A stretch of 29,649 nucleotides of DNA from Planctomycetales bacterium. Its GTDB lineage: Bacteria; 4484-113. Position 1 is the stretch's first letter, and the number at the start of each line of letters is the position of its first letter. Below the pieces are notes generated by a model. The model did no database searches, was not told the DNA's origin, and was given only the letters and a program-made list of their open reading frames with translations. The position numbers were made by a program, and so were the translations under genes. Shown one piece after another: positions 1,912-22,030 of the stretch. Location: assembly GCA_037445915.1 (NCBI GenBank), contig JBBIJQ010000024.1, positions 1,340 to 30,988 of the forward strand, written 5' to 3'.

Positions 1912-2769
1912 ATGCTGATACACCGCACCGCCATAGTGCACCCGGAAGCGCGCGTTGACACTGGCTGCGAGATTGGGGCGTACTCCATTATTGGGCGCAA
2001 TGTCTCCATAGGGGCGGATACGCTTATCGGAAGCCACGTTATCATCAGCGAGAATACAACCATCGGCGCAGGCTGCAAGGTTTAAGCCCATGCTGTCATC
2101 GGGTCCGACCCCCAGGACATTAAGTATAACGGAGATGTGTCAAACGTGGAGATTGGCGAGGGCGTGCAAGTGCGTGAGTTCGTCACGATCAACCGTGGCA
2201 GCAAGAATGGCTCGGTAACGCGCGTTGGTGACAACTCGATGCTTATGACCGGCGTCCACATCGCCCATGACTGCCAGGTCGGGAAGCACGTCATTATGGC
2301 GAACCTGGCGACCCTTGCCGGGCATTGCAAGGTTGAGGATCACGCAGTCCTCGGCGGGATGGCGGTCGTCCACCAGTTTGTCCGTGTAGGGAAAATCGCG
2401 ATGGTAGGCGGCACCAGCGGGCTGATGCAGGACGCTCCACCTTTTATGATGGTCTTCGGCCCCGCCCCCGCGCGCGTCGTGAACATCAACAACATCGGCC
2501 TGAAGAGGCGCGGCACAACTCCCGAGGTCAGGCTTGCGCTGCGCCAGGCGTTCCATATCCTCTACCGCCAGCAGTTAAGCACTAAAGACGCCATCGCCAA
2601 GATTGAGGATACGATTCCTCCAAGCGATGAGATGGCATACCTGCTCAACTTCTACCGCAGCAGCGAGCGGGGCATCTGCCGCTCAAAGCTGTCGATAGCG
2701 GAAGGTGTTGCAGAAGTCGACGGGAGTGACTTCTTTAACGAGCTGACCGCTAGCATCCCTGCGACGTAG
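1912..2769 (+). pseudogene. lpxA: UDP-N-acetylglucosamine O-acyltransferase interrupted by an in-frame TAA at 2083-2085 (nonsense mutation or sequence error)
   Basis: From ATG 1912 (GGAG SD): MLIHRTAIVHPEA...TTIGAGCKV*AHAVIGSDPQDIKY..., in frame with the 2137..2769 ORF. Hexapeptide repeats, PQDxKY, REFVTINRG, HIAHDC, VHQFVRVG, GLKRRG and SERGICR are present. Confidence 0.9.
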
Positions 2770-2817
2770 GGAAGTAGGCAAAGGCAGTCGGTAGTTCGTC
2801 CTTGGGATTCCAGACTA

Positions 2818-3078
2818 GTACGCCGGGCGAACCAGCGCGGCTATGATAATCTCTGAAACTGTAGGCCTGGCTTTAGCCTGGCTCTGGATTCAGGGGTGGA
2901 ACAGGCGACCCGCCTGTTCATTAAGCAGCACAAGCGAGACACATGTGCCAACTTCCAGATTCCAGTGCGGTGTTGAAACACCGACTACAAGAGGAAGACA
3001 AGAGCCGCACTGGTGAGTGCGGCTTACTCGTCTTTGGTTGTTCCTGTGTTTCCCAAGCAGGACTAAAGTCCCGCCTGC
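2818..3078. repeat. Mosaic of six REP-like imperfect palindromes between convergent lpxA and ccdA
   Basis: On +: 2818-2842, 2861-2888, 2896-2918. On -: 2961-2988, 3003-3027, 3057-3078. Each is a GTAG/GTAC/GTAA/GTGG/GCAG tetramer followed by a 7-8 bp stem hairpin. Confidence 0.8.
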
Positions 3079-3108
3079 AAGGTTAGTACTTACCTGCGCA
3101 AAAGCGCC

Positions 3109-4044
3109 CTAGCCCTTCTTCAAGGCCTGGACTTCGTCGAAGGAAAGGCCGGTGATAATCAAGATGTAGGTCGGCACCATCGGCAGCACGCACGGCGAGA
3201 GGAACGACGCCAAGCCGCCCAGGAAGGCAATGCCCAGGGTCGCAGCCGAGCCTGCCAGCGCGGACTCAGCGTTGATGTTCGCGCCGCCGAGCATTATCGC
3301 CAGCTTCACAACTCCCCAAAAGATAATCGCGGTTCCGCCGATTGCCGTAAGCGCGAGCGTTGCGACAGTTAGCTGCTTATAGAGGGTCTTGACTGCGATG
3401 CGCAAGGCGGCAGCGACGAGTAGGAGGAACAAAGCGCCCACAGCGATGTATAGCGCGGTGTTGAGGATGGGCGTCGGGTCGGTTGAGGGCTTACCCGCGA
3501 TGTAGCCGAACAGCAGCGCAAAGCCGACCGCGATTAGCAGCAGCGAGCTGACAAAGTTGATGATAGGGATGTAGCGCGTGAGCTTGCGCACAAAGCCGAT
3601 CGCATAGCCGATGAGCAGCGCGACAAGCAGGAACGGTATCGCCAGGCCCAGTGAATACGCAACCATCATCGGAATTGCGGCGCCCGGCGTGTTCATCGCG
3701 ACTGCCAGGATTGCAGCAAGGATGGGGCCGATGCAGGGCGTCCAACCGGCGGCGAAAGCGACGCCGATGATCACGGTTGACCAGTAGCCGCCCTTGGACT
3801 GGTAGTGCATCTTCTTCTCAATGAGCAGGAACTTGAGCGGCGACAGGTTCCATGCGCTAAGGAGTATATGCAGCCCCATTAGGATTACGACAACGCCGCC
3901 GACATAGCCGAAAAGCTGCGGATTGCGGCTGATGAAGGTGCTGATAGCGGCAGCCGGCAGGCCGAACGCGATGATGAACACGGCGGAAAAGCCGAGGACA
4001 AACGCAAATGCGTGGCTAAGCGCTTTAACGGCTACTTTTCCCAT
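3109..4044 (-). CDS. ccdA: Cytochrome c biogenesis / DsbD-beta family protein CcdA, circularly permuted with two extra TM helices (311 aa)
   Basis: Both Pro-Cys motifs are present: AGWTPCIGPIL internally and GLASFLSPCVLPMVPTY at the C-terminus. Start reassigned to ATG 4044 (GGGGG SD-like), which removes the overlap with the upstream acylase. Confidence 0.85.
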   Translation of the reverse strand: MGKVAVKALSHAFAFVLGFSAVFIIAFGLPAAAISTFISRNPQLFGYVGGVVVILMGLHILLSAWNLSPLKFLLIEKKMHYQSKGGYWSTVIIGVAFAAGWTPCIGPILAAILAVAMNTPGAAIPMMVAYSLGLAIPFLLVALLIGYAIGFVRKLTRYIPIINFVSSLLLIAVGFALLFGYIAGKPSTDPTPILNTALYIAVGALFLLLVAAALRIAVKTLYKQLTVATLALTAIGGTAIIFWGVVKLAIMLGGANINAESALAGSAATLGIAFLGGLASFLSPCVLPMVPTYILIITGLSFDEVQALKKG

Positions 4045-4075
4045 GAGTAACCCCCAAATACAGTAAAGAGATTTA

Positions 4076-6262
4076 TCAGCGCGCAGGCTGATACTTGTAG
4101 CTTCCCGAAAGGTAAAGCGGAACCTGGTCGGCGAAGTGGGGGTCGCCGGGCCGCCCGCTGTTGCCGCCAGGGATAACTGACCAGTATCCGCCTTGAGCGC
4201 CGGGGGACATGATAAGCCTCGCAGTTGCTGCAAAGCTCTTTAACAGGTATTTGCCATCCCAGCGCACAGCTGAGACATTCACCGTACTAAAGCCGCCATC
4301 GTCAGGAACGAGGCCTGGCTGCTGCGTCAAGTAGAATGGCAGCGGGCACACGAGCGGCAATTTATGGATTTCGCCATAAGCCGGCAGCTTGCCGGTAACT
4401 TTCGCTGCGTCGGCGACTGCGGCTTTCCAGGCTGCGAAGATTTCATCGTCTCCAAGCGTTACCCAGCCTGCGCCATTCAGCGCAGCGAGTAGGACGATGT
4501 CTGTATCGGCGGTTATTGCGTGGTCAGACCACAGCCTGCGGAACAGCATGATGCGCATCAGCTCGTAGAGCGGCGCGCCCATTGAGCTTCTTGACTCCTC
4601 GTAATCCCAGGCGGAGAGGATGCGCAAGGCTTCTTGTTCCAGCTCGCTCATCTGCCCTTCCAATGCTTGCAGGCGTGGCAGGAGCGGAGGCAGCATCTCT
4701 TCGGCATAAAGCGAATGCGCGTCGCATTGGATTCGCGCCAAGTCGTTGCGCGTGAGCTTTGCGCCGGCCTTCGTTTTGCTTACTATCAAGTCGCTTATGC
4801 GCTTGTTCCTAAAGCCGGCCGCGTAGTTGCCGGGAAAGACAGGCAAGCTCTCTTCGGTGAGCGCAGGCGGGTCGTTGCTTGTGACGATAAAGCCGGAAGG
4901 CGGGTTGATTGAGGCAGGCATATCGCCTGGCTTTATGAAACTCCAGCGGTACTGCGAGGCTTTCTGCGGGGTGTCAACCACATGGGCATCATTGGCATCA
5001 TAATCGCGGATGGGTACCATGCCGGCCGCGAAATAACCTATGTTGCCTTCTATATCTGCGTAGGCGAAGTTGTAGGGAGTCAGCATTTGCGACAGCGCTG
5101 CGCGGAAGTCAGCAAGGCTGCGCCCCATGTCAAGGTTTATGAAGCCAAGCGCTTGGTCATTTTCGTAGAGCGCTGTCCAGTGAAGCACGTAATAGTTCGC
5201 ATCATCTTCCCGCACCACGGGGCCGTAGGGCGTGTCTAGCACATCCACAATCTCCTCGCGCATTCTGAAGCCGTCACGGTAGCGCAGCGTCTCCTTTCTC
5301 GCCCGTGGGGCTTCTCCCAGGACTTCGGCTGCGCACACTTTCGGGATTATCATTACATCTTCGTTGTCGGCTTGCAGGGCTGTTATGCACCACGCGTAGT
5401 AACCGTTGTCGCCCATCGTCACAAGACAGGTTCCGGGGATGGTTATTCCCCTAATACTGAGTTCGTTAGGAATCACCAGCGCGACTTCATACATAATTCC
5501 GGGAAAGGTTACTTCAAGGTGCGGGTCGCCGCAGACCACCGGCTTGCCGTCAACGGTCAGCTTGCCCGACACCGCGAAAGCGTTGGAGCACTGCGCCGCA
5601 AACGACCCGCCGGAGAAAGAAGCGTTGGCGAGTTGAGGCATCGGTCCGTGAATACTGGGATACCATCCGCGCTCGGCAACCGCTGAGTCGGTTAGCCCTT
5701 GGATGCGCGCGAAATCACCGCCCCGCGCGCGCGCATTCAAGCGCGAGAATTCCTCCTCGCTGTCGCCGGATAAGTAAAGATGCATGAGCGCTGCGGCAAG
5801 CAATGTGTCCTCGGGCTTCCATTCTTCAAAGCGCGGGAGGATGAAATACTCCTCCGGCAGGCCGTTCGCTGCAATATAGTCGTTAATGCCTCGCGCGTAT
5901 TCTACTAGCGCCTCGTAAGCTTCCGGACCGGTTTTGCGCAGCCGTTCAAGGTCGCGCTGGGCAAGCCTCGCCAGCCCAAGCTTGCGCATCGCAATATCTT
6001 CTTGCAGCGAGTCTTTGCCCGCAAACTCGCTGATGCGGCCAGCAGCCTTGCGGCGCGTCATGTCAAGTTGGATGAGCCGGTCTTCGGCTGTAACCCATCC
6101 AAGGGCGTAGATTAGCCCTGACAGGTTATCGGCAGTGATGCGCGGAACGCCCCATTGGTCGCGGACAATGCCTGGAGGCGCAGCAAGAGAAGCGCGCGGG
6201 TTGAGGAAGCCAAAAGCGCAGGCAACGCAGACAAATGCTATTACGGTAATCAGGCGGCGCAT
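4076..6262 (-). CDS. Penicillin acylase family Ntn hydrolase (peptidase S45), secreted
   Basis: N-terminal signal peptide, RDQWGVPRI, AEDRLIQLD, nucleophile SNAFAVSG, DPHL, NFAYADIEGNIGY and PGGNSGRPGDPHFADQ. Confidence 0.9.
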   Translation of the reverse strand: MRRLITVIAFVCVACAFGFLNPRASLAAPPGIVRDQWGVPRITADNLSGLIYALGWVTAEDRLIQLDMTRRKAAGRISEFAGKDSLQEDIAMRKLGLARLAQRDLERLRKTGPEAYEALVEYARGINDYIAANGLPEEYFILPRFEEWKPEDTLLAAALMHLYLSGDSEEEFSRLNARARGGDFARIQGLTDSAVAERGWYPSIHGPMPQLANASFSGGSFAAQCSNAFAVSGKLTVDGKPVVCGDPHLEVTFPGIMYEVALVIPNELSIRGITIPGTCLVTMGDNGYYAWCITALQADNEDVMIIPKVCAAEVLGEAPRARKETLRYRDGFRMREEIVDVLDTPYGPVVREDDANYYVLHWTALYENDQALGFINLDMGRSLADFRAALSQMLTPYNFAYADIEGNIGYFAAGMVPIRDYDANDAHVVDTPQKASQYRWSFIKPGDMPASINPPSGFIVTSNDPPALTEESLPVFPGNYAAGFRNKRISDLIVSKTKAGAKLTRNDLARIQCDAHSLYAEEMLPPLLPRLQALEGQMSELEQEALRILSAWDYEESRSSMGAPLYELMRIMLFRRLWSDHAITADTDIVLLAALNGAGWVTLGDDEIFAAWKAAVADAAKVTGKLPAYGEIHKLPLVCPLPFYLTQQPGLVPDDGGFSTVNVSAVRWDGKYLLKSFAATARLIMSPGAQGGYWSVIPGGNSGRPGDPHFADQVPLYLSGSYKYQPAR

Positions 6263-6265
6263 AGC

Positions 6266-7063
6266 CTAGCCGCCGTGTATCAGCATAGCGAACCTTCCGA
6301 CAATCTCCTTGCCTATCCAATCAAACATCAGGAATTGGATGCGGCCGATGAGCAGCGAAACGCGCGCCATAATGGTGTAGCCAAATGACGCGCCGAAGGA
6401 AATCATCAAGAAGTAAATGCCGACCCGCGAGAAGCCTCCTACAAAGCCCCGATGCTCCACCGAGAAGAAGAAGTAAACCAGGACGGTCAGAGCGCCGAAG
6501 AACAGCACGAGAGAATTGAGAAGCAAGACCGCCTCGTCAATGCCGGTGACCCGCCAAGGGATAGCTTGGACGGTGGCGGAGAACTGCGGGAGGAACAGGT
6601 TACTCACTACAAGGGGCAGCCCGATGCCGGTACCGCCTCCGATGAGAAATGCGAAGGTAATGCGCGAAACCCAGCCCTTGCCTGGCACTAGCCGCATTAG
6701 TATAAACGCGCCCAGTATTGCCGGGATAATAACCCAAGGGTTGAAGAGCGTGCCTTCAGGCGTTCCGTACTTGGGGTCTAGCGTGGGTATCAGCGGGTAG
6801 ATGAGCTTTGGCTTGATGTAGGAATACCAGTAAATGGTTGAGCCATAGCCCGCCGAGATTCCAAGGTAGAGGTACTCGCCAAACCTGAAAAGCGGGTTAT
6901 CCTTGTATATGAAGGAGAACATGCAGAGCGTTAGGCCTGCGGCTATCCATATTCCGATAGTGACCATTAACGGCCCAGTCAGGACAGCGTGCATAGCCTG
7001 CTGCCACGGTGCCAAATTGTCAGCTCCCTGCAATAGGATGAGCGCCAGGTGGTTCATAATCAC
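6266..7063 (-). CDS. Uncharacterised polytopic membrane protein (265 aa)
   Basis: About 6-7 hydrophobic segments; SFIYKDNPLFRFGEYLYLG and LMISFGASFGYTIMAR motifs; GGAGG SD; GTGA start/stop overlap with the upstream gene. Confidence 0.85.
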   Translation of the reverse strand: MIMNHLALILLQGADNLAPWQQAMHAVLTGPLMVTIGIWIAAGLTLCMFSFIYKDNPLFRFGEYLYLGISAGYGSTIYWYSYIKPKLIYPLIPTLDPKYGTPEGTLFNPWVIIPAILGAFILMRLVPGKGWVSRITFAFLIGGGTGIGLPLVVSNLFLPQFSATVQAIPWRVTGIDEAVLLLNSLVLFFGALTVLVYFFFSVEHRGFVGGFSRVGIYFLMISFGASFGYTIMARVSLLIGRIQFLMFDWIGKEIVGRFAMLIHGG

Positions 7064-7923
7064 TTGGCCTCCCGCGCTTTACGGCGCTTCTGGACTACTA
7101 AAATCATCGCGAATATGTTAGCCAGGATGATGGCGAAAAAGATAAGCGCGTGCACCGCGGACTGCGAGTCCATCGCGGAAGTTGCTTTTCCCGACTTGCC
7201 TATCAGCTTTTCGTATTCAGCCGCACCCCTGAGCCCGCCAATAATGCCGTTTATCTGGCCGGCTTGAAGGTAAGGGTAGTACTGTGGGGCGATGACGGCG
7301 GTAACGCCTGCGCCTACGGGGATGTTGAACTTCTCGGTCCCGTATACAATCCACCAGTCTCCTGAGTTTCCAGCCTCAAGCATAACCATGTAATCAGTAT
7401 CTTTGAGCTTGTTGAAGTTCCTAATGATTGGCATTGGAGATGTCGCGTTGCCGTAATGGTCTTTGGGGAATGTCTTGGAGATGTCATTGCCCATAGACAT
7501 AATTACGATGGTCCCACCAACCTGGAAGCCGAGGAAGGCGTAATCCTCGCCGCTCTTCCAGTCGGGATACTCCTTACGCAGCTCGTCAATCGCCTGGGCG
7601 ACTAAGTTCGGGCCGTTAATCCACAAGACGACGATTAGGAGCTTATGCTTCTTGCGGACGATATGCTCCATCACAGCCATTAGCATCGGGTATAGCTCAG
7701 GCTGCGAGGCGGGGTCAAAATCTGCCGCGAGAAGGATATTTGAGCCCTCGGGAAGGCTCTCAATCTTGTCGTAGATGCTCTGCACCTCAGGGGTAACATT
7801 GATTGGAAGCCCAATCGGGATAAGCAGGGGCACCGCGACTGCGAGCACAACCAGTGTATAGATAATGCGGCGGTCAAGCTTTAGGAACAGCTCAACAAAA
7901 GTGGCATGTTGTTTAGCTTCCAC
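7060..7923 (-). CDS. Uncharacterised protein with N- and C-terminal TM anchors and a central soluble alpha/beta domain (287 aa)
   Basis: Long ORF; TAGTG overlap with the upstream stop; GGAGG SD; motif YPYLQAGQINGIIGGLRGAAEYE. Confidence 0.85.
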   Translation of the reverse strand: MEAKQHATFVELFLKLDRRIIYTLVVLAVAVPLLIPIGLPINVTPEVQSIYDKIESLPEGSNILLAADFDPASQPELYPMLMAVMEHIVRKKHKLLIVVLWINGPNLVAQAIDELRKEYPDWKSGEDYAFLGFQVGGTIVIMSMGNDISKTFPKDHYGNATSPMPIIRNFNKLKDTDYMVMLEAGNSGDWWIVYGTEKFNIPVGAGVTAVIAPQYYPYLQAGQINGIIGGLRGAAEYEKLIGKSGKATSAMDSQSAVHALIFFAIILANIFAMILVVQKRRKAREAK

Positions 7924-8555
7924 TAATCGCCACCTCCCATGTAGGTGCGCTCAATGCCGAAGATAATGCGTACCGAAATTGCGATTTGCGCCAGGGCTAC
8001 TCCAAGCGTTACGCCTCGCGACGCCGCCATATTGGGGTTGTTCATAATCCATTCAGCTAGGAACCCAAGCTTAGGCAGGATGGCTTCGCCAATTGGGACG
8101 CGGCCAATCATCACTATCAAGCCCGCAACCAAGAGCGCAAGCGCTTCCCAAGTGCGGGCGCGGAAGGCGCGGAAGGCGGCTGAGGCGATGAAGAAGGCGA
8201 GGGTTGCAAACATCGTCGCCTGCATCGGCACGAAGACGAATTGGTACTGCCAGGCAGTTGGAGTTCCGGCGTCTTTGCCCAATATCAGCCCCAACAGCAA
8301 AATCTGGGTGTAGGCGACTAATGTGAGCACCGAGAAACCGTAGCCGGGGACCTTCTTGCGGACTTTGGCGACATGGTAATGCAGCAGCGAGATAATCGCA
8401 AACACCGCCGCGAAACCCGTAATCACCAAGCTCCAATTAACGAAACCCTCGTAAAGGCTCTGCGCGATTTTAGCCGGAACGAACTCCCGGATAAACATCA
8501 CCATACCCAATACGAAGGCCAGAAGCACAGGAAACTTCTTTTTCAGGAACTGCAT
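7923..8555 (-). CDS. Uncharacterised polytopic membrane protein (210 aa)
   Basis: About 6 hydrophobic helices; ATLAFFIASAAFRAFRAR and RIIFGIER motifs; starts 3 nt after the upstream stop. Confidence 0.85.
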   Translation of the reverse strand: MQFLKKKFPVLLAFVLGMVMFIREFVPAKIAQSLYEGFVNWSLVITGFAAVFAIISLLHYHVAKVRKKVPGYGFSVLTLVAYTQILLLGLILGKDAGTPTAWQYQFVFVPMQATMFATLAFFIASAAFRAFRARTWEALALLVAGLIVMIGRVPIGEAILPKLGFLAEWIMNNPNMAASRGVTLGVALAQIAISVRIIFGIERTYMGGGD

Positions 8556-8558
8556 TGT

Positions 8559-10046
8559 TTACCCCAACTGGGTGAATAAATCTTTGACGAATGTGATGCC
8601 GAAGGTAACGAGTATTGTTCCAACTAAAATCACGATCATCATAAACACTTTCGCCATGTCCTGCCCTTTCAAGCTCCCTAGGATGAGCGGCTCTCTGGAA
8701 AGGTAGGCGCTGGCGGCGTAAAGCTCTTCGCCGATGAGCGTGTAGTCGCAGGTCGTTATGAAAAACGGGAGCTGGGTCATCGCGTCGGTGCCGGCTATTT
8801 GAATGGCGCCGGTGCTCGCGCCTGTCTCAGCTAGAATCAGGCTTTCCGCGTAATAGAAGCCCATAAAGAAGTTGGCGGCGGGCTTCTCGCGCAACATCAG
8901 ACCAGCCACCGCGGCTGAATAGGAAAACTGGTCGTCAGTAAGGAAGTAAACGCTATCAGGGTTATAAGCGTCCGGGCGCCCGGCGTCGGTGTATGCGGAC
9001 TTGACGATTTCCTGCGCAACAGTAAGCACGATGGGGTCGCGGCAGGGAACGGTCAGGCTTGATTCGTAGTTGGCGACGCGACCCGCAACGCGGCCAAGAA
9101 TGTTAAGCGCGGCCAGTGTGCTTAGGTCGCCCAATCCTGCCAAGCCATTGATATAGAGGATGGGCTTGCCCATTTCCGTCGCGCGCCCGATGGCTTCGTC
9201 GACCGCGTTCAAGCCGGCGATGCGGCGGATGAATAGGTTCGGGTCGCGGCGCGCACGCGCGATAAATAAGAGGATTGTTGTGCCGAAGAGGATGGCGAAG
9301 ATAAACGCGTTCAACTTACTCGTTGTGAACCACTGTTCCTTCGCGTCAACCTGGAATATCTCAGGCGCAATCGCAGTTACCCCGTCCCGGACAGCAGTGA
9401 ACTTGATATACATCGTGCCGATTTTGCGCGGTTGGATGTCTGCGAGGATAGGGGTGATCTTCGGCAAGCCGGTCTTTACATCAATCACATCAGGGTCAAT
9501 CGGCTCACCCGCGTCATCCTTAGGTCCCAGATTCGGCTTTACCGTGAATCCGACCGGCTGAGGAATGTGAATCTGCCTGCCGATCTTGTCGTACTCGCCG
9601 GTGGGCACGTTCTGAATGATGGCAACGTGCACCTGCTTCTCACGACCGTTCTTGCCGAACCAGAAAAAGCCTGGGAAGTACTTCCCATGGTCTTCCATGA
9701 AGACCGCATCGGCAGGCTGAGTAAGCGCTTCAGCCCACGGGCCGTCTGGGCTCTCGGCAAGGTAAATGACGTAGTTAGTCTCGGCAGATTCGCCCGGCAC
9801 CACCGACCACTTAAGGTAGACGCCGCTGCCATCGTCATTAGGCAGGTCGCCAGCAAAGAGGTCGGTCGGGAGCTTTATCTCTACTGGCGGCGCGGCAGGC
9901 TGAGCCTCGACTGGTTCTGCGGCTTCAGTGGAAGCGGCAGCATCAGGCGCGGTTCCTTCAGCCGGCTGCTGGGCGAAAGAGCCAGACGAGATAGCGAACG
10001 TGCACAAGATTGCAAGGATTACAGTTAACTTGATTGTGTTCCCCAT
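8559..10046 (-). CDS. DUF6754-type membrane protein with signal peptide, Ala/Pro/Glu linker and FN3-like extracytoplasmic domain
   Basis: Signal peptide; DLPNDDGSGVYLKW; after a TM helix, IRRIAGLNAVDEAIGRATEMGKP...GEELYAASAYL...GSLKGQD and a final TM. The DUF6754 assignment is from recall of the motif and needs an HMM check. Confidence 0.75.
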   Translation of the reverse strand: MGNTIKLTVILAILCTFAISSGSFAQQPAEGTAPDAAASTEAAEPVEAQPAAPPVEIKLPTDLFAGDLPNDDGSGVYLKWSVVPGESAETNYVIYLAESPDGPWAEALTQPADAVFMEDHGKYFPGFFWFGKNGREKQVHVAIIQNVPTGEYDKIGRQIHIPQPVGFTVKPNLGPKDDAGEPIDPDVIDVKTGLPKITPILADIQPRKIGTMYIKFTAVRDGVTAIAPEIFQVDAKEQWFTTSKLNAFIFAILFGTTILLFIARARRDPNLFIRRIAGLNAVDEAIGRATEMGKPILYINGLAGLGDLSTLAALNILGRVAGRVANYESSLTVPCRDPIVLTVAQEIVKSAYTDAGRPDAYNPDSVYFLTDDQFSYSAAVAGLMLREKPAANFFMGFYYAESLILAETGASTGAIQIAGTDAMTQLPFFITTCDYTLIGEELYAASAYLSREPLILGSLKGQDMAKVFMMIVILVGTILVTFGITFVKDLFTQLG

Positions 10047-13564: not shown

Positions 13565-14968
13565 ATGCCCGACGAAATGAACTTCAAGCTGAGGGATTTG
13601 CCAAGCGTGAGCAGCCTGCTCGCGGATGAGAGGCTAACCTCGCTCGCAGCGGCACACGGCCTGACGGCTGCAGACTTGAAGCGATGCGCCGAGGATGCGC
13701 TGTCGGCATTGCGCAGCGAGCGCAGCGATGACGGCGCGCCGATGGACAAAGACGGCCTGCGCGCGCATGTTAACGACGCCATTGCCGATGCGCTGCACCT
13801 CGCATCCCTGCGCAAGCTACAGCCGGTCATCAACGCCACGGGCATCCTCGTACACACCAACCTCGGGCGCGCGCCGCTGGGCGAGAAGCTGCTGGACGCG
13901 GTGCGCCCGGCGCTGCTCGGCTACACCAACCTTGAATACGAACTGGCGGATGGCAAGCGCGGCAAGCGCGGCACGGAGATTGAGCGCATGCTTTGCGCGC
14001 TGTCCGGCGCGGAGGCGGCGCTCTTGGTCAACAACAACGCGGGCGCGGTGTTCCTCATCCTGCGCGCGCTTTGCGCCAGTCGCGAAGTCGTCATTTCACG
14101 CGGCGAGCTAGTGCAAATCGGCGGCGGCTTCCGCATCCCCGACATCATGGCCGAAAGCGGCGCGGTAATGCGCGAAGTCGGCACCAGCAACATAACCACT
14201 GCGCAGGACTACGCCGATGCGATGAGGCCGGACACCGCCGCAATCCTCAAGGTGCACCGCAGCAACTTCGGGCTGACCGGCTTCACCGCCGACGCAAGCC
14301 TGGAAGAGCTGGCGCCCATAGCGCAAGAACATAACGTGATTCTCCTTAATGACATGGGCGCGGCCGCGCTACTGCCTGAAAATGAAGCGAATACGCTTGG
14401 GTTGCCGCATCCCGCGCCATCGCTACGCGCGGGTGCGGACGTCGTGTGCTTCTCCGCCGATAAGATACTCGGCCTTGCGCAAGGCGGCATCATCCTTGGC
14501 AAGAGCGCGCCGCTCGCGAAGCTTCGCAAGTCGCCGCTTTACCGCGCGCTGCGCCCCGACAAGTCCATGCTCGCTGTGATTGAGGCGGGACTGTCGCTAA
14601 TCGCCGCCGGTGATTACAGCGCGATACCCGTTAACGCAGTGCTGATGCAGGGCGCGGACGCGCTGAAAACCAAGGCGTTCGTGCTGGCGAAGAAGCTGCG
14701 CAAGGCGGGCGCGAATGCGGAGGTCGCGGAGTCGCAGGGCGAAATCGGCGGGGGCATCGCAGGGCGCAAGCTCAAGTCGTATGCCGTCGTGGTGGGTATC
14801 AACAAGACGCCGCCCGACGCGCTGGCGGAGAAGCTGCGCCATGCCCGCCCGCCCATTATCGCGGTCGTGCGCGACGGGAAGCTCATGCTTGACGTGCTTG
14901 CGCTTATGCCCGGCGACGACGAACGAATTACCGTCGTCATCGCGGGATTAGTTAAGGAAGCGCAGTAG
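13565..14968 (+). CDS. selA: L-seryl-tRNA(Sec) selenium transferase
   Basis: VINATGILVHTNLGRAPL, NLEY, VNNNAGAV, SRGELVQIGGGFRIPDIM, LKVHRSNF and PLP-lysine motif FSADK. Confidence 0.9.
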   Translation: MPDEMNFKLRDLPSVSSLLADERLTSLAAAHGLTAADLKRCAEDALSALRSERSDDGAPMDKDGLRAHVNDAIADALHLASLRKLQPVINATGILVHTNLGRAPLGEKLLDAVRPALLGYTNLEYELADGKRGKRGTEIERMLCALSGAEAALLVNNNAGAVFLILRALCASREVVISRGELVQIGGGFRIPDIMAESGAVMREVGTSNITTAQDYADAMRPDTAAILKVHRSNFGLTGFTADASLEELAPIAQEHNVILLNDMGAAALLPENEANTLGLPHPAPSLRAGADVVCFSADKILGLAQGGIILGKSAPLAKLRKSPLYRALRPDKSMLAVIEAGLSLIAAGDYSAIPVNAVLMQGADALKTKAFVLAKKLRKAGANAEVAESQGEIGGGIAGRKLKSYAVVVGINKTPPDALAEKLRHARPPIIAVVRDGKLMLDVLALMPGDDERITVVIAGLVKEAQ

Positions 14969-17858: not shown

Positions 17859-18983
17859 CTAATCCATACGGATTGGCATGACGATATATACGAATCCCGG
17901 CTTGTCGGGGACTTCCACCTTGAGCGGGTTCACTTCGCTAGTCCAGTTCAAGTCAACCGTGTCTGCGTCAATGACCGATAGCAAGTCAACGAGGTATCCA
18001 GGATTAAGCGCAATGCGCATGTCGGCGAACGGCTTGCCTTTCGTGAAAGGCATCTCTTCAACGCCTTTGCCGACTTCCTGCGATTCGCTCAAAATGATAA
18101 GGCTGTTGCCTGAAGTCTCCAGGCGCACGACTGGGTTTTGTTCCTTCACTTTGAAGACAATCAGCACGCGCTGGAGCGCTTCGCGCAGCGCGGTGCGGTT
18201 CACGTTGGCGATTGATTTGCAGTCCTTGGGCACGACCTTGTTGTAGTCGGGATAGCGGACGTCAAACAGCGAGCCGCCGAAAGTCGTGTTGTCAAAGCGG
18301 AAGAAGACTTGGTTGCTTAGGTAGTAAACTTCAACGGGCTTCCCCTCTTCGGCAGTGAGCGCGCGGCTAAGCTCGCCCACTATCGTCGTGGGGATGAGCA
18401 GGCTCTTATCCTTCACCTCTGGCGAGGGGTTGTCCATCCTCTCCACCGCAAGGCGGTGGCCGTCTGTCGCGACGATGTCAAGGCTCTCTTCGTGGAAGTT
18501 GAGCAGCACGCCGTGCGTGTAATGGCTTGTCGTCCCGCCGATGTCCTTGGCGGCGCTGAAGACAGTGCGACCCAGCGCGGCCTTGAGCAGCCCCGATGAA
18601 ATCTGCGCAAGCTTGCCTTCCTCAAAGAGCGGGAAGCTGGGAAAGTTCTCGTCCGGGAGGATGTTGATGTCATAAACTGAAAAGCCGCTCGTGACCTTGA
18701 GCACGCCGTCTTTGCGCTCAAGCACAACATCCTTCTTCGGCAGCCGCGACACAAGGTCAACAAACAGCCGCGCGGGGACGAGCAGCGCGCCTTCGCGGTC
18801 GCAGGCGACGTCAAGCGTGTGCTCAATTGTGAAGTCGCCGTCGGAGCCGGTGAGCGTCAGGCTCTTCTTGGCCGCTTGCAGGCGGATGTGCGCAAGCACA
18901 AGGTTCAAGGTGCGGCTGGATACCGCTTTGCTAACAAGGTTGAGCGCCTGGCTCAGGCGTTCCTGGGAGATGGAAAGTTTCAT
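17859..18983 (-). CDS. dnaN: DNA polymerase III beta sliding clamp
   Basis: About 374 aa; LTGSDGD, VPARLF, VATDGHRL, YPDYNKVVP, IALNPGYLVD and C-terminal IVMPIR. AGGAGG SD before tandem ATGs (18986/18983); TGcTATAAT at 19011-19019. Confidence 0.95.
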   Translation of the reverse strand: MKLSISQERLSQALNLVSKAVSSRTLNLVLAHIRLQAAKKSLTLTGSDGDFTIEHTLDVACDREGALLVPARLFVDLVSRLPKKDVVLERKDGVLKVTSGFSVYDINILPDENFPSFPLFEEGKLAQISSGLLKAALGRTVFSAAKDIGGTTSHYTHGVLLNFHEESLDIVATDGHRLAVERMDNPSPEVKDKSLLIPTTIVGELSRALTAEEGKPVEVYYLSNQVFFRFDNTTFGGSLFDVRYPDYNKVVPKDCKSIANVNRTALREALQRVLIVFKVKEQNPVVRLETSGNSLIILSESQEVGKGVEEMPFTKGKPFADMRIALNPGYLVDLLSVIDADTVDLNWTSEVNPLKVEVPDKPGFVYIVMPIRMD

Positions 18984-19044
18984 CATGCCCCTCCTGGGAT
19001 AGGAAAGGAGATTATAGCAGAAGCTTTGGCGCGGCGCATCAGCC

Positions 19045-19073
19045 TTGCCGCCAAGGTGTAGGAGGGCTAGAAT
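19045..19073 (+). promoter_or_regulatory. Sigma70-type promoter for mqnE-mqnA-mqnC (likely leaderless)
   Basis: TTGCCG (19045-19050), 17-nt spacer, TAGAAT (19068-19073), then 7 nt to GTG 19081. Confidence 0.55.
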
Positions 19074-19080
19074 AGCGGCG

Positions 19081-20157
19081 GTGAAGGAGATTTCCCAGGA
19101 ATTGCGCCGAAAGGCGCAGGCGCGGGAGCGGCTGTCGCCGGACGAGGCCGTTTTCCTGCTGACCGAAGCCCCCCTGCACGGCCTTGGGGCGCTGGCGCAC
19201 GAAATCAGGATGGCTTGGCACGGCGAAAAGGCGTTCATGGCCGCCAACCGGCACGTCAACTACACGAACATCTGCACCAGCCGATGCAGCTTCTGCTCTT
19301 ACCGCGCGGACGCAGGCGTCGCGGGCGCATTCCTGCTCCAGCCGCGCGAGGCTGCGGCGATGCTGCACGAGGCCGGCATGGACGGCATAACCGAGCTGCA
19401 TGTCGTCGGCTCGCTCGCGCCCAAGGAGATGGCGGGCTTTGGCTATTACGTGGAGCTTTTGCGCGCGCTGCGGGAGGCGTTCCCAGGCATAAGCCTCAAG
19501 GCGTTCACGGCGGTGGAAGTCGTGTGGATGGCGAAGCTCGCGGGCAAGCCGGTGGAGGCAGTGCTCGCGGAGTTGAAGGCGGCAGGGCTGGATGCGATGC
19601 CGGGCGGCGGCGCTGAGATATTTGACGAAGAAGTGCGGCGTGAAATATGCGCCGGGAAGATTAGCGGCGAGGAGTGGCTAAGCGTTCACCGCTCCGCGCA
19701 CAAGCTTGGCATCCCCACGAATGCGACGATGCTCTACGGCCACATTGAGCGCTCTGAGCATATAGCAGACCACCTGCTGCGCCTCTACGACTTGCAGGCG
19801 GAGACAGGCGGCTTTCAGGCGTTCGTGCCGCTACCCTACCAGCCGTGGGAGGGGGGGCTTGCGTGCGCAGGAAGCACGGGGGTGGACGACTTGCGCGTGC
19901 TCGCGGCGTCGCGCATCGTGCTTAGCAACGTCCCGCATATAAAGGCATACTGGATTGGTTTCGGGCTGAAGCTTGCGCAGGTGATGCTCGCCTGGGGCGC
20001 GGACGACCTGGACGGCACAATCGGCAGCGAGCGCATCTTCCACGCTGCGGGCGCAAAGACGCCGGCAGGGGTAACATTGGACGCGTTAGCTGCTATTATT
20101 AACGGCGCGGGGCTGCGGCCTGTGCTTAGGGACGCGCTTTACCGCGAACTCACCTGA
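19081..20157 (+). CDS. mqnE: Aminofutalosine synthase (CofH/MqnE radical SAM)
   Basis: NYTNICTSRCSFC, ELHVVG, KAFTAVE, MPGGGAEIF, TNATMLYGHIE, HIKAYW and GADDLDGT; adjacent to mqnA and mqnC. Confidence 0.9.
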   Translation: MKEISQELRRKAQARERLSPDEAVFLLTEAPLHGLGALAHEIRMAWHGEKAFMAANRHVNYTNICTSRCSFCSYRADAGVAGAFLLQPREAAAMLHEAGMDGITELHVVGSLAPKEMAGFGYYVELLRALREAFPGISLKAFTAVEVVWMAKLAGKPVEAVLAELKAAGLDAMPGGGAEIFDEEVRREICAGKISGEEWLSVHRSAHKLGIPTNATMLYGHIERSEHIADHLLRLYDLQAETGGFQAFVPLPYQPWEGGLACAGSTGVDDLRVLAASRIVLSNVPHIKAYWIGFGLKLAQVMLAWGADDLDGTIGSERIFHAAGAKTPAGVTLDALAAIINGAGLRPVLRDALYRELT

Positions 20158-20174
20158 TACCGGGGAGAAAGGGT

Positions 20175-20933
20175 ATGGCTGAGAAGTATAAGGTTGGGCT
20201 TCTTCCATTTCTGAACGCCTTGCCGCTGGTTTACAGGCTGCAAACGCGCGACTCGGTAGAGCCGGTTTGGGGAATGCCGTCAGAACTGTTTCATTTGATG
20301 CAAGCGGGGAAGCTGGACGCGGCGCTGACATCCTCCTTCGTGTATGCGGCGAAGCTGCGCACGCGCATTACCGATCTCGGCGTGGCGGCCGAAGGGCGCG
20401 TGCTCACGGTTATGCTCTACTCCCAGGACCCGCTTGATATGGTTGAGGTGATTGAGGAAGACCCTGCGAGCCTGACTAGCAACGCCCTCATGCGCATCAT
20501 TTTCCACGAGCGCAGGCAGCACGTGAAGTTCATCCCCTGCCCTAACTTGCGCGGGAGGCTTGCGCCGCGCACCGGCCGCATCGTCATCGGAGACCATAAC
20601 TTCCAGCCGCCGTTTACTTACCACCACGCCTATGATGTTGCTGCGCTTTTCCACAGCATCTTCAAGCTGCCGGTTGTCTTTGCACTCTGGCAAGGCGGAG
20701 ACAGTACACCGCAACCGCTAGTGGAGCTGCTTGAGCGCGCCTACGCCGAGGTTGAAGCAGACTGGGAAGGGACTTACAAGTATGCAGTCCGCGAGTGGGC
20801 CATCACCCACCAGGCGGTTGAGGAATACTTCGGGACCATCCTCCACTTCCGGCTCACACCGCGCGACCAGGACTTCCTGGAACTTTTCGGCCGCAAGGTG
20901 CATGAGCTAAAGCTCGTGAACCTGGGGCAATAG
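20175..20933 (+). CDS. mqnA: Chorismate dehydratase (futalosine pathway)
   Basis: PFLNALPL, GMPSEL, DPASLTSNAL, RIVIGD and LPVVFALW; lies between mqnE and mqnC. Confidence 0.85.
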   Translation: MAEKYKVGLLPFLNALPLVYRLQTRDSVEPVWGMPSELFHLMQAGKLDAALTSSFVYAAKLRTRITDLGVAAEGRVLTVMLYSQDPLDMVEVIEEDPASLTSNALMRIIFHERRQHVKFIPCPNLRGRLAPRTGRIVIGDHNFQPPFTYHHAYDVAALFHSIFKLPVVFALWQGGDSTPQPLVELLERAYAEVEADWEGTYKYAVREWAITHQAVEEYFGTILHFRLTPRDQDFLELFGRKVHELKLVNLGQ

Positions 20934-20944
20934 GCGAAACGGAC

Positions 20945-22030
20945 GTGCCTCGCGCGCTTACTTACGATGAGACTGCAAAGCTCGCAGCAAAGCCGCTAGA
21001 AGGCGGAAGGCTTAAGCAAGACGAGGGTATCGCACTGCTGGAAGGCGGGAACATCCACGCAATAAGCGCCGCCGCGCACGAGTTTCGGTTGCGCAAGGCT
21101 GATGCCACAAGCGTGACCTACGTCGTTGACCGCAACACTAATTACACGAACATCTGCGTGACGCGCTGCGCGTTTTGCGCATTCTCATGCGATGAAGGCG
21201 AGTCGGATGCGTATGTGCATCCATACGACCCTATTCTCAAGGCAAAGATTGCCGAGGCCGTCTCGCTTGGCGCGACGCAGATACTCATGCAGGGCGGGCA
21301 TCATCCCGCGCTGCCGCTTTCGTGGTATGAGGAGCTTGCGCGCAACATCAAGCGCGACTTCCCCGCGATAACGCTGCACAGCTTTTCCGCGCCGGAGATT
21401 GTGCACATCGCGCGCCTGTCGGGGCTTGCGCCGCGAGAAGTGCTGGCGCGCCTGCGCGATGCAGGGCTGGACAGCCTTCCCGGCGGCGGCGCGGAAATAC
21501 TAGTGCAGCGCGTGCGCGATGTCGTGTCGCCGCGAAAGGCGAGCGCGGACGAATGGCTAAGCGTGATGCGCGATGCGCATACGCTGGGGATGCGCACGAC
21601 GGCGACGATGATGTTCGGGCATGTTGAAACGCTGCCCGAGCGCATTGAGCACCTTGAACGCATCCGCGCGCTGCAGGACGAAACCGACGGCTTCACCGCG
21701 TTTATCTGCTGGGCGTTTCAGCCGGAGAACACGCCGCTTGGCGGGGCGGCCATAGGCGGGCTGGAATACCTGCGCATGCTCGCCGTGTCGCGGCTGTATT
21801 TGGATAACTTCGCGAACCTGCAGGCGTCTTGGGTGACTATGGGGCCGAAGGTGGGGCAGCTTGCGCTGCTCTTCGGCGCAAACGACATGGGCGGGACGAT
21901 GCTGGAGGAAAACGTCGTCGCCGCCGCAGGCACGAGCTATTCCCTCACCGAGGCCGAGCTTCGCCGCCTCATCACTTCCGCCGGCTTCGCGCCCATGAAG
22001 CGCGCCACCGATTACACGCTGTTGGAGTAA
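20945..22030 (+). CDS. mqnC: Cyclic dehypoxanthinyl futalosine synthase (radical SAM)
   Basis: YVVDRNTNYTNICVTRCAFCAF, LMQGGHHP, PGGGAEIL, TATMMFGH, QASWVTMG and GTMLEENVV. Confidence 0.93.
   Translation: MPRALTYDETAKLAAKPLEGGRLKQDEGIALLEGGNIHAISAAAHEFRLRKADATSVTYVVDRNTNYTNICVTRCAFCAFSCDEGESDAYVHPYDPILKAKIAEAVSLGATQILMQGGHHPALPLSWYEELARNIKRDFPAITLHSFSAPEIVHIARLSGLAPREVLARLRDAGLDSLPGGGAEILVQRVRDVVSPRKASADEWLSVMRDAHTLGMRTTATMMFGHVETLPERIEHLERIRALQDETDGFTAFICWAFQPENTPLGGAAIGGLEYLRMLAVSRLYLDNFANLQASWVTMGPKVGQLALLFGANDMGGTMLEENVVAAAGTSYSLTEAELRRLITSAGFAPMKRATDYTLLE

Follow-up and report, generated by a model that had tools for sequence, protein, structure and literature searches.

Locus and layout of the gene

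The stretch of DNA analysed here (hereafter the window) comprises 29,649 nucleotides of the Planctomycetales bacterium assembly GCA_037445915.1 (contig JBBIJQ010000024.1, positions 1,340 to 30,988) and carries on its minus strand, at 3109–4044, an intact open reading frame (ORF) of 311 codons plus stop that we read as the complete coding sequence of a circularly permuted CcdA, protein P0001. The ATG start codon stands at 4044 and the stop codon at 3109–3111; a G-rich stretch lies 8–12 nucleotides upstream of the ATG, and the start methionine is the same one at which the homologues begin. With a probability of roughly 0.8, judged from the sequence, its product is a working CcdA that has been circularly permuted in nature. 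CcdA is a membrane electron transporter of the thiol-disulfide type, and the activity of P0001 is assigned by homology.

The product can be divided into three parts, all encoded on the minus strand. Residues 1–185 (3490–4044) hold a cytoplasmic N-terminus, representing the second half of the former loop between transmembrane (TM) helices TM1 and TM2, followed by the core helices TM2–TM6, as delimited by alignments to the solved Thermus CcdA structure 5VKV, to the canonical CcdA P0021 and to the Pfam profile DsbD_2. Residues 186–255 (3280–3489) comprise a periplasmic turn and two extra TM helices, X1 (about 191–217) and X2 (about 222–253), recognized from an indel relative to 249-residue relatives and from an AlphaFold2 model. 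Residues 256–311 (3112–3279) contain, by alignment, an acidic periplasmic linker, the relocated TM1 (about 266–298, with the SFLSPCVLPMVP motif) and a cytoplasmic tail that represents the first half of the former TM1–TM2 loop. The codons of the two catalytic cysteines lie where the original prediction had placed them, that of Cys104 in TM4 (GWTPCIGP motif, conserved across the alignments) at 3733–3735 and that of Cys285 in TM1 (SFLSPCVLP motif, conserved in the permuted alignments) at 3190–3192. Each cysteine is part of a Pro-Cys motif and both are intact, being invariant in 15 of 15 and in 24 of 24 aligned permuted sequences; Cys104 is also at least 90% conserved in a 141-sequence alignment.

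Permuted helix order

Comparison with canonical CcdA proteins establishes the order of the helices. By phmmer (E-value 2.4e-24), residues 7–181 match positions 38–202 of 5VKV, which form TM2–TM6, and residues 269–299 match positions 4–34, which form TM1. BLASTP against P0021, a canonical CcdA of 244 residues, yields the same two blocks: query residues 7–178 align with 56–224 at 43% identity (E 3e-44), and the TM1 piece, query residues 269–309, aligns with 8–48 at 61% identity (E 6e-14). The six-helix core is complete, but instead of running from TM1 to TM6 it runs through TM2–TM6 and then TM1. The alignment to CcdA was tested for collinearity and is not collinear, so that the order proposed in the original prediction, TM2–TM6 first and TM1 last, holds in comparison with both the family and the solved structure. 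Homology to the CcdA family is significant by both programs, with 2617 matches at E ≤1e-10 in the representative library.

The Pfam matches are split and reversed, as had been anticipated. Residues 14–174 fall on positions 37–197 (of 199) of the DsbD_2 profile and residues 269–299 on positions 4–34 (of 219) of the DsbD_TM profile, both under the gathering cut-offs, and the whole-protein score for PF02683 (DsbD_TM) is 24.4 against a cut-off of 27.1. Taken alone, this last score speaks against assignment to the family, but scores below the cut-off arise because the CcdA match is split. When the C-terminus is joined to the N-terminus, eight residues remain (310–311 plus 1–6) in place of the seven (49–55) of P0021; the CcdA loop is thereby restored as predicted, and the new termini fall within the former TM1–TM2 loop. 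The linker between TM6 and TM1, on reading, sits where the former C- and N-tails were. The protein thus has the attributes by which natural circular permutants are recognized, namely two parent-homologous segments swapped, the old termini joined and the new termini in a former loop. On these alignments, the window protein is a CcdA with permuted helix order.

Predicted structure and membrane topology

An AlphaFold2 model built from a 141-row alignment has eight long helices, with a mean predicted local distance difference test score (pLDDT) of 78.5 and a predicted template-modelling score (pTM) of 0.75. The core helices span residues 3–40, 42–64, 87–118 (kinked at 101), 123–143/145–156 and 159–178, and in the model both TM4 (87–100 / 102–118) and TM1 (266–281 / 289–298) are broken at the Pro-Cys motif. 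The pLDDT is 82–89 for residues 271–300 of TM1 and 61–73 for most of the extra hairpin. A Foldseek search of the PDB placed 5VKV on top with a probability of 1.00 and a TM-score on the target of 0.46, values that refer to the 178 collinear columns alone, and nothing else in the PDB exceeded a probability of 0.23.

With the AlphaFold2 helices as boundaries, 13 lysines and arginines fall in predicted inside loops as against 2 in outside loops. This distribution fits an eight-TM topology with both termini inside and with TM1 in its native, outside-to-inside orientation. It had been argued from the letters of the sequence that an even number of inserted helices would preserve the orientation of TM1; both the alignment and the AlphaFold2 model contain a two-helix insert, and in the predicted topology the charges are placed as this argument would have it. 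A complex prediction that paired the core (1–185) with the TM1 part (256–311) gave a score of 0.02 (mark 0.32), was made without controls and counts neither way.

Conservation of the gene and its neighbourhood

A genome scan recovered orthologues, 57–58% identical to the window protein, on two independent metagenome-assembled genome (MAG) contigs: L001 (190 kb), also from a Planctomycetales bacterium MAG, and L002 (150 kb). A neighbourhood of about 14 kb in the window is collinear with both, the shared gene order being FabF, FabG, LpxA, the permuted CcdA, an amidase, three unannotated membrane proteins, DUF6754, formiminotransferase, LpxL and a Mur ligase. Furthermore, the protein collection contains 13 other full-length clusters, 308–317 residues long and 49–83% identical to the window protein (P0002–P0014 being the relatives of P0001 counted as full-length).

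By the Nei-Gojobori method, the ratio of nonsynonymous to synonymous substitution rates (dN/dS) between L001 and L002 is 0.19 for the whole gene; taken part by part, the relocated TM1 segment has 0.105, the core 0.17 and the extra hairpin 0.32. All three parts are under purifying selection, and the relocated TM1 is the most constrained of them. As a separate observation, the 57–58% identity of the permuted CcdA to its L001 and L002 orthologues compares with 69–81% for the flanking housekeeping genes; the gene is thus faster-evolving than its neighbours despite its low dN/dS.

These data bear on the most prosaic explanation of the helix order, that it was created by misassembly or that the ORF is the decaying remnant of a tandem ccdA duplication. 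In its favour can be said that the window's own protein was found on one contig. Two independent MAG contigs, however, carry orthologues that agree with the window protein in helix order and in neighbouring genes. Together with the 14-kb synteny and the dN/dS of 0.19, they show that the gene is no assembly artefact and speak, indirectly, against misassembly; the 13 further full-length clusters argue to the same effect. A decaying remnant, for its part, is hard to reconcile with the invariance of both cysteines and with constraint that is tightest on the very segment that moved. Nor do other CcdA fragments flank the gene: tblastn searches with four CcdA proteins detected none in the window or in the L001 and L002 loci, all other matches in the window having E-values above 1. 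An artefact or remnant is therefore strongly disfavoured, and we give it hardly any credence.

Permuted relatives and their phylogeny

Each protein was assigned a helix order by comparing where phmmer placed its matches to the core and to the TM1 segment of P0001. A first set of 267 fetched CcdA-like proteins contained 34 permuted and 233 canonical members; after an added profile search the set grew to 366 proteins, of which 44, from many assemblies, were permuted, 322 canonical and none unclassified, and because both sets were retrieved with a permuted query, these fractions are not estimates of prevalence. Permuted order is nevertheless common among the fetched relatives, and the implicit assumption of the original prediction that a permuted CcdA is a one-off has to be abandoned. 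An exhaustive search of 50%-identity representatives returned 16 permuted forms among the 150 proteins listed. The closest shorter relatives, P0015–P0019 (249–250 residues), have the permuted order without extra helices, their TM6 and TM1 being connected by a short periplasmic linker, and the extra helices are missing from most permuted forms. Where source databases name permuted proteins at all, they do so as ‘cytochrome c biogenesis protein CcdA’ or ‘cytochrome c-type biogenesis protein’; permuted P0173, for example, is ‘CcdA [bacterium]’ in NCBI. The ESM Atlas yielded generic CcdA clusters only. One further protein, P0012 (260 residues), is nearly identical to P0008 except that X1 and the N-terminal residues are missing; with an odd number of helices inserted, TM1 would be inverted, and P0012 is therefore probably a dead variant or an artefact of assembly or gene calling.

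Trees were inferred from concatenated TM1 and core columns, about 230 in total. The FastTree analysis used 171 rows, 31 permuted (with the fragments P0012, P0020 and P0022 left out) and 140 canonical, the latter comprising all canonical representatives from the 50%-identity search plus six of the 99 canonical proteins from the protein-collection search; an IQ-TREE quick tree was built from 168 rows, and a subset of 56 rows (19 permuted, 37 canonical) served for the approximately unbiased (AU) test. In both the FastTree and the IQ-TREE analyses, the window protein belongs to a clade of 18 permuted rows with 99–100% support, which includes P0015–P0019, as it does on the 56-row tree. The clade forms an unresolved trichotomy of the long forms P0001–P0011, the long forms P0013 and P0014 and the short forms P0015–P0019. 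The remaining 13 permuted rows lie dispersed over the CcdA tree.

Parsimony requires 12 changes of helix order on each of the trees of 171, 168 and 56 rows, and strongly supported branches alone force at least 4 changes on the 171-row FastTree, at least 5 on the 168-row IQ-TREE and at least 6 on the 56-row tree. Several permuted proteins pair with canonical ones at supports of 97–100, namely P0162 with P0267, P0128 with P0215, and P0132 with P0125, P0133 and P0247. On the 56 rows, placing all permuted rows in a single clade is rejected (delta log-likelihood 385.8, AU p = 3.1e-5), and the permutation therefore appears, from these comparisons, to be recurrent within the CcdA family.

The competing view holds that there was one ancient permutation event and that the scatter is noise from a short hydrophobic alignment. 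It draws on the 68 to 72 of about 165 forks that are open in the 171- and 168-row trees, on an order label more clustered than chance would have it (none of 500 shuffles gave so low a value on the large trees) and on the fact that the same loop is cut in all permuted forms. Besides the AU result and the well-supported permuted–canonical sister pairs, pairwise identities run counter to it: permuted P0162 shares 62% identity with canonical P0267, as against 41% with the nearest permuted form, and P0180 (55% versus 49%) and P0159 (51% versus 45%) likewise have a closer relative among the canonical than among the permuted proteins. We consider a single origin improbable. Three points must nonetheless be set against recurrence and against the route by which it might have come about. 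The protein is hydrophobic and contributes about 230 columns to the trees, in which many deep branches lack support; the choice of canonical rows for the AU test was made with the first tree already in view; and none of the 366 fetched proteins, in a search that covered lengths of up to 555 residues, is a duplication intermediate with two TM1 matches. Weak second matches to the TM1 segment (independent E 0.1–1) fall on TM4 of many canonical CcdAs, at about residues 125–165, and are explained by the known internal inverted repeat. The TM6–TM1 linkers, by eye, look like the C-tail and N-tail of the nearest canonical relatives placed end to end, which is what duplication and fusion would leave behind.

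Origin of the extra hairpin

The hairpin X1–X2 corresponds to an insertion of about 62 columns relative to the 249-residue permuted relatives, and AlphaFold2 forms helices at 191–217 and 222–253; the two additional hydrophobic helices predicted to follow TM6 are thus present. Searches for homologues of the hairpin outside the long-form clade by phmmer and hmmsearch gave no significant match. A hit of the P0013 segment on the short forms (E ~4e-5) was set aside, as the query had included orthologous linker residues, and profiles of the hairpin were compared by hhalign with the linker removed from the query.

The hairpin profile of P0013 and P0014 aligned with core residues 128–185, that is, TM5–TM6, over 55 columns (score 29.6, E 1e-4). 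None of 100 column shuffles reached this score (maximum 19.1), the reversed profile scored 9.9 and the next-best region 14.6. The hairpin of the window's clade in turn aligned collinearly with that of P0013 and P0014 at a score of 22.9, which again none of 100 shuffles attained. It is plausible from these profile matches that X1–X2 is a diverged tandem copy of the TM5–TM6 hairpin, and a tandem duplication of this kind would add exactly one out-in-out hairpin after TM6. Two considerations count against such an origin: when the hairpin of the window's clade is compared directly with TM5–TM6, 83 of 100 shuffles score as high, and the case is made in two steps, each a profile match of moderate strength between hydrophobic helices.

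Proposed mechanism and physiological role

In the proposed arrangement, the chain would start in the cytoplasm within the former TM1–TM2 loop, pass through TM2–TM6, the X1–X2 hairpin and a short acidic periplasmic linker, and end with TM1. The protein would thus have eight TMs and two cytoplasmic ends, with each core helix keeping its native orientation. As in canonical CcdA, the pair of Cys285 (TM1) and Cys104 (TM4) would be reduced by thioredoxin from the cytoplasmic side, and electrons would pass onward to a periplasmic thioredoxin-like protein, for example for the maturation of cytochrome c. The permutation may have arisen when ccdA was duplicated in tandem, the copies fused and the outer parts were lost, several times in the family, and in the window's clade the extra hairpin would probably have been added as a diverged tandem copy of TM5–TM6. 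Both termini of canonical CcdA lie in the periplasm, which is consistent with the lysine and arginine counts; because they are on the same side, duplication and fusion would be feasible. The partners, comprising electron donor and acceptor, and the duplication route are inferred.

Within the 29.6-kb window, neither a gene for a thioredoxin-like partner nor genes for cytochrome c maturation were found, and this weighs against the role outlined above. The absence of cytochrome c maturation genes nearby would suit a permuted protein with another job, whether transport of the DsbD/LysE-superfamily type or a dedicated supply of reductant to the neighbouring membrane-protein and amidase cluster. Such a job would also accord with a weak hit to the NCBIfam model of the ArsG efflux permease (E 4.9e-7), which scored 29 bits where 200 is the cut-off, and with the conserved place of the gene at the end of a six-gene same-strand cluster that includes a penicillin-amidase homologue, DUF6754 and three membrane proteins without annotation. 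The two redox Cys motifs, however, are conserved without exception, and CcdA proteins are by far the best matches. The synteny, moreover, was seen in close relatives, whose housekeeping genes are 69–81% identical, and may reflect mere relatedness; no CXXC motif was noticed on reading the neighbouring proteins. A different function is accordingly unlikely, and we retain the reading of the gene as a functional permuted CcdA.

Comparison with known systems and implications

A published model of CcdA has six TMs arranged as two inverted repeats, with the Cys-bearing TM1 and TM4 moving inside an O-shaped scaffold (PMC7329351). With canonical CcdA (PF02683; 5VKV) the window protein shares the six core helices and both Pro-Cys motifs, at 33–46% identity over TM2–TM6 and 61% over TM1, and presumably, by analogy, the redox-relay mechanism. 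The differences are architectural. Canonical CcdA has the order 1-6, whereas the window protein reads 2-3-4-5-6-(X1-X2)-1 and possesses two additional helices; canonical termini are periplasmic, while those of the window protein are predicted to be cytoplasmic; and TM1, in canonical CcdA tethered at its cytoplasmic end to TM2, is in the window protein tethered at its periplasmic end to the scaffold, which leaves its cytoplasmic end free, as in the permuted forms generally.

The short permuted CcdAs (P0015–P0019 and the distant P0128, P0162, P0173 and P0251) resemble the window protein in the cut of the TM1–TM2 loop, in the succession of TM2–6 and TM1 and in both cysteines. They differ in that a periplasmic TM6–TM1 linker of about 25–35 residues replaces the extra helices, and the distant ones group with different canonical CcdAs. 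P0140 (300 residues), which has canonical order plus two C-terminal TMs, shares with the window protein a total of eight TMs and the presence of two helices after TM6; its TM1 is N-terminal, in contrast, and the window hairpin, searched up to E = 10, did not match P0140. The beta domain of DsbD also has eight TMs.

The nearest precedent is furnished by VKOR and DsbB. A circular permutation, ascribed to duplication and deletion, has been proposed to connect the helix threading of these membrane thiol oxidoreductases (PMC4555120). That case is a structure-based hypothesis on two distant families, whereas in CcdA the permutation is visible in the sequences, at up to 62% identity, and appears to recur within one family. 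A general full-text search for natural circular permutation in membrane proteins surfaced this paper only (PMC4555120), and no description of a permuted CcdA or DsbD was found in the full-text literature, with subscription journals lying outside the coverage; two apparent hits were judged to be coincidences within reference lists. We regard the permuted CcdA as a new architecture within a known family, one that is real and conserved and that seems to have arisen more than once.

Natural permutation of single TM helices is rarely documented. CcdA provides evidence from nature that termini can be joined, that the TM1–TM2 connection can be cut and that a helix bearing a catalytic cysteine tolerates re-tethering, and it thereby bears on the proposed elevator mechanism as well as on the membrane insertion and evolution of polytopic proteins. 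In its fullest form, the interpretation would make CcdA a membrane-protein family that has undergone repeated, independent permutation at the level of helices, with at least about five order changes, always by a cut in the cytoplasmic TM1–TM2 loop, and with the scaffold of the window's lineage enlarged by duplication of the TM5–TM6 hairpin; we regard this composite picture as an even wager. If permutation was indeed repeated, the recurrent fixation of the permuted arrangement would mean that the covalent TM1–TM2 link is dispensable for the proposed elevator-type redox relay, and the Cys-bearing TM1 could be viewed as a mobile, semi-autonomous element, open to tethering from one membrane side or the other. 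Repeated fixation would also hint at an advantage, one candidate being that a chain starting inside needs no translocation of an N-terminal tail without a signal peptide.

There is a practical consequence as well. Architecture-blind annotation misses permuted CcdAs or labels them plain CcdA, because the split match of the window protein falls under the Pfam cut-off and the four closest clusters, P0001–P0004, are without a precomputed Pfam domain.

Neighbouring genes and other features of the window

The permuted ccdA gene converges with lpxA, and between the two lies a GC-rich, terminator-like hairpin with T-rich tails on both strands (3002–3025), a candidate recognized by a consensus scan alone. 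On the other side, 31 nucleotides upstream of the permuted ccdA and on the same strand, is a penicillin-amidase family gene (4076–6262, minus strand; PF01804, E 4.5e-140), which occupies the same place in the gene order of L001 and L002. A weak terminator-like hairpin at 4074–4093 (minus strand) overlaps the stop codon of the amidase gene, just upstream of the permuted ccdA, and a consensus scan of 2750–4300 detected no sigma-70-like promoter.

Directly upstream of the amidase gene are four membrane-protein genes on the same strand as one another, at 6266–10046 (minus strand) in the window, 4050–7752 in L001 and 4106–7751 in L002. The set consists of DUF6754 (495 residues) and three multi-TM proteins of 210, 287 and 265 residues without a Pfam or NCBIfam match; its order and sequence (58–73% identity) are conserved in both related MAG loci, and it may represent an unrecognised envelope complex.

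Further along the window, a DnaN ORF at 17859–19259 (minus strand) is listed with a TTG start that leaves about 92 residues before the first beta-clamp domain, and its true start is probably further downstream. A homologue of SelA, selenocysteine synthase, is encoded at 13565–14968 (plus strand; PF03841, E 2e-107), from which it follows that the organism probably makes selenoproteins. Finally, at 19045–22030 (plus strand), a VitK2_biosynth gene is flanked by two genes of the radical S-adenosylmethionine CofH/MqnC type, a grouping that looks like the futalosine route to menaquinone.

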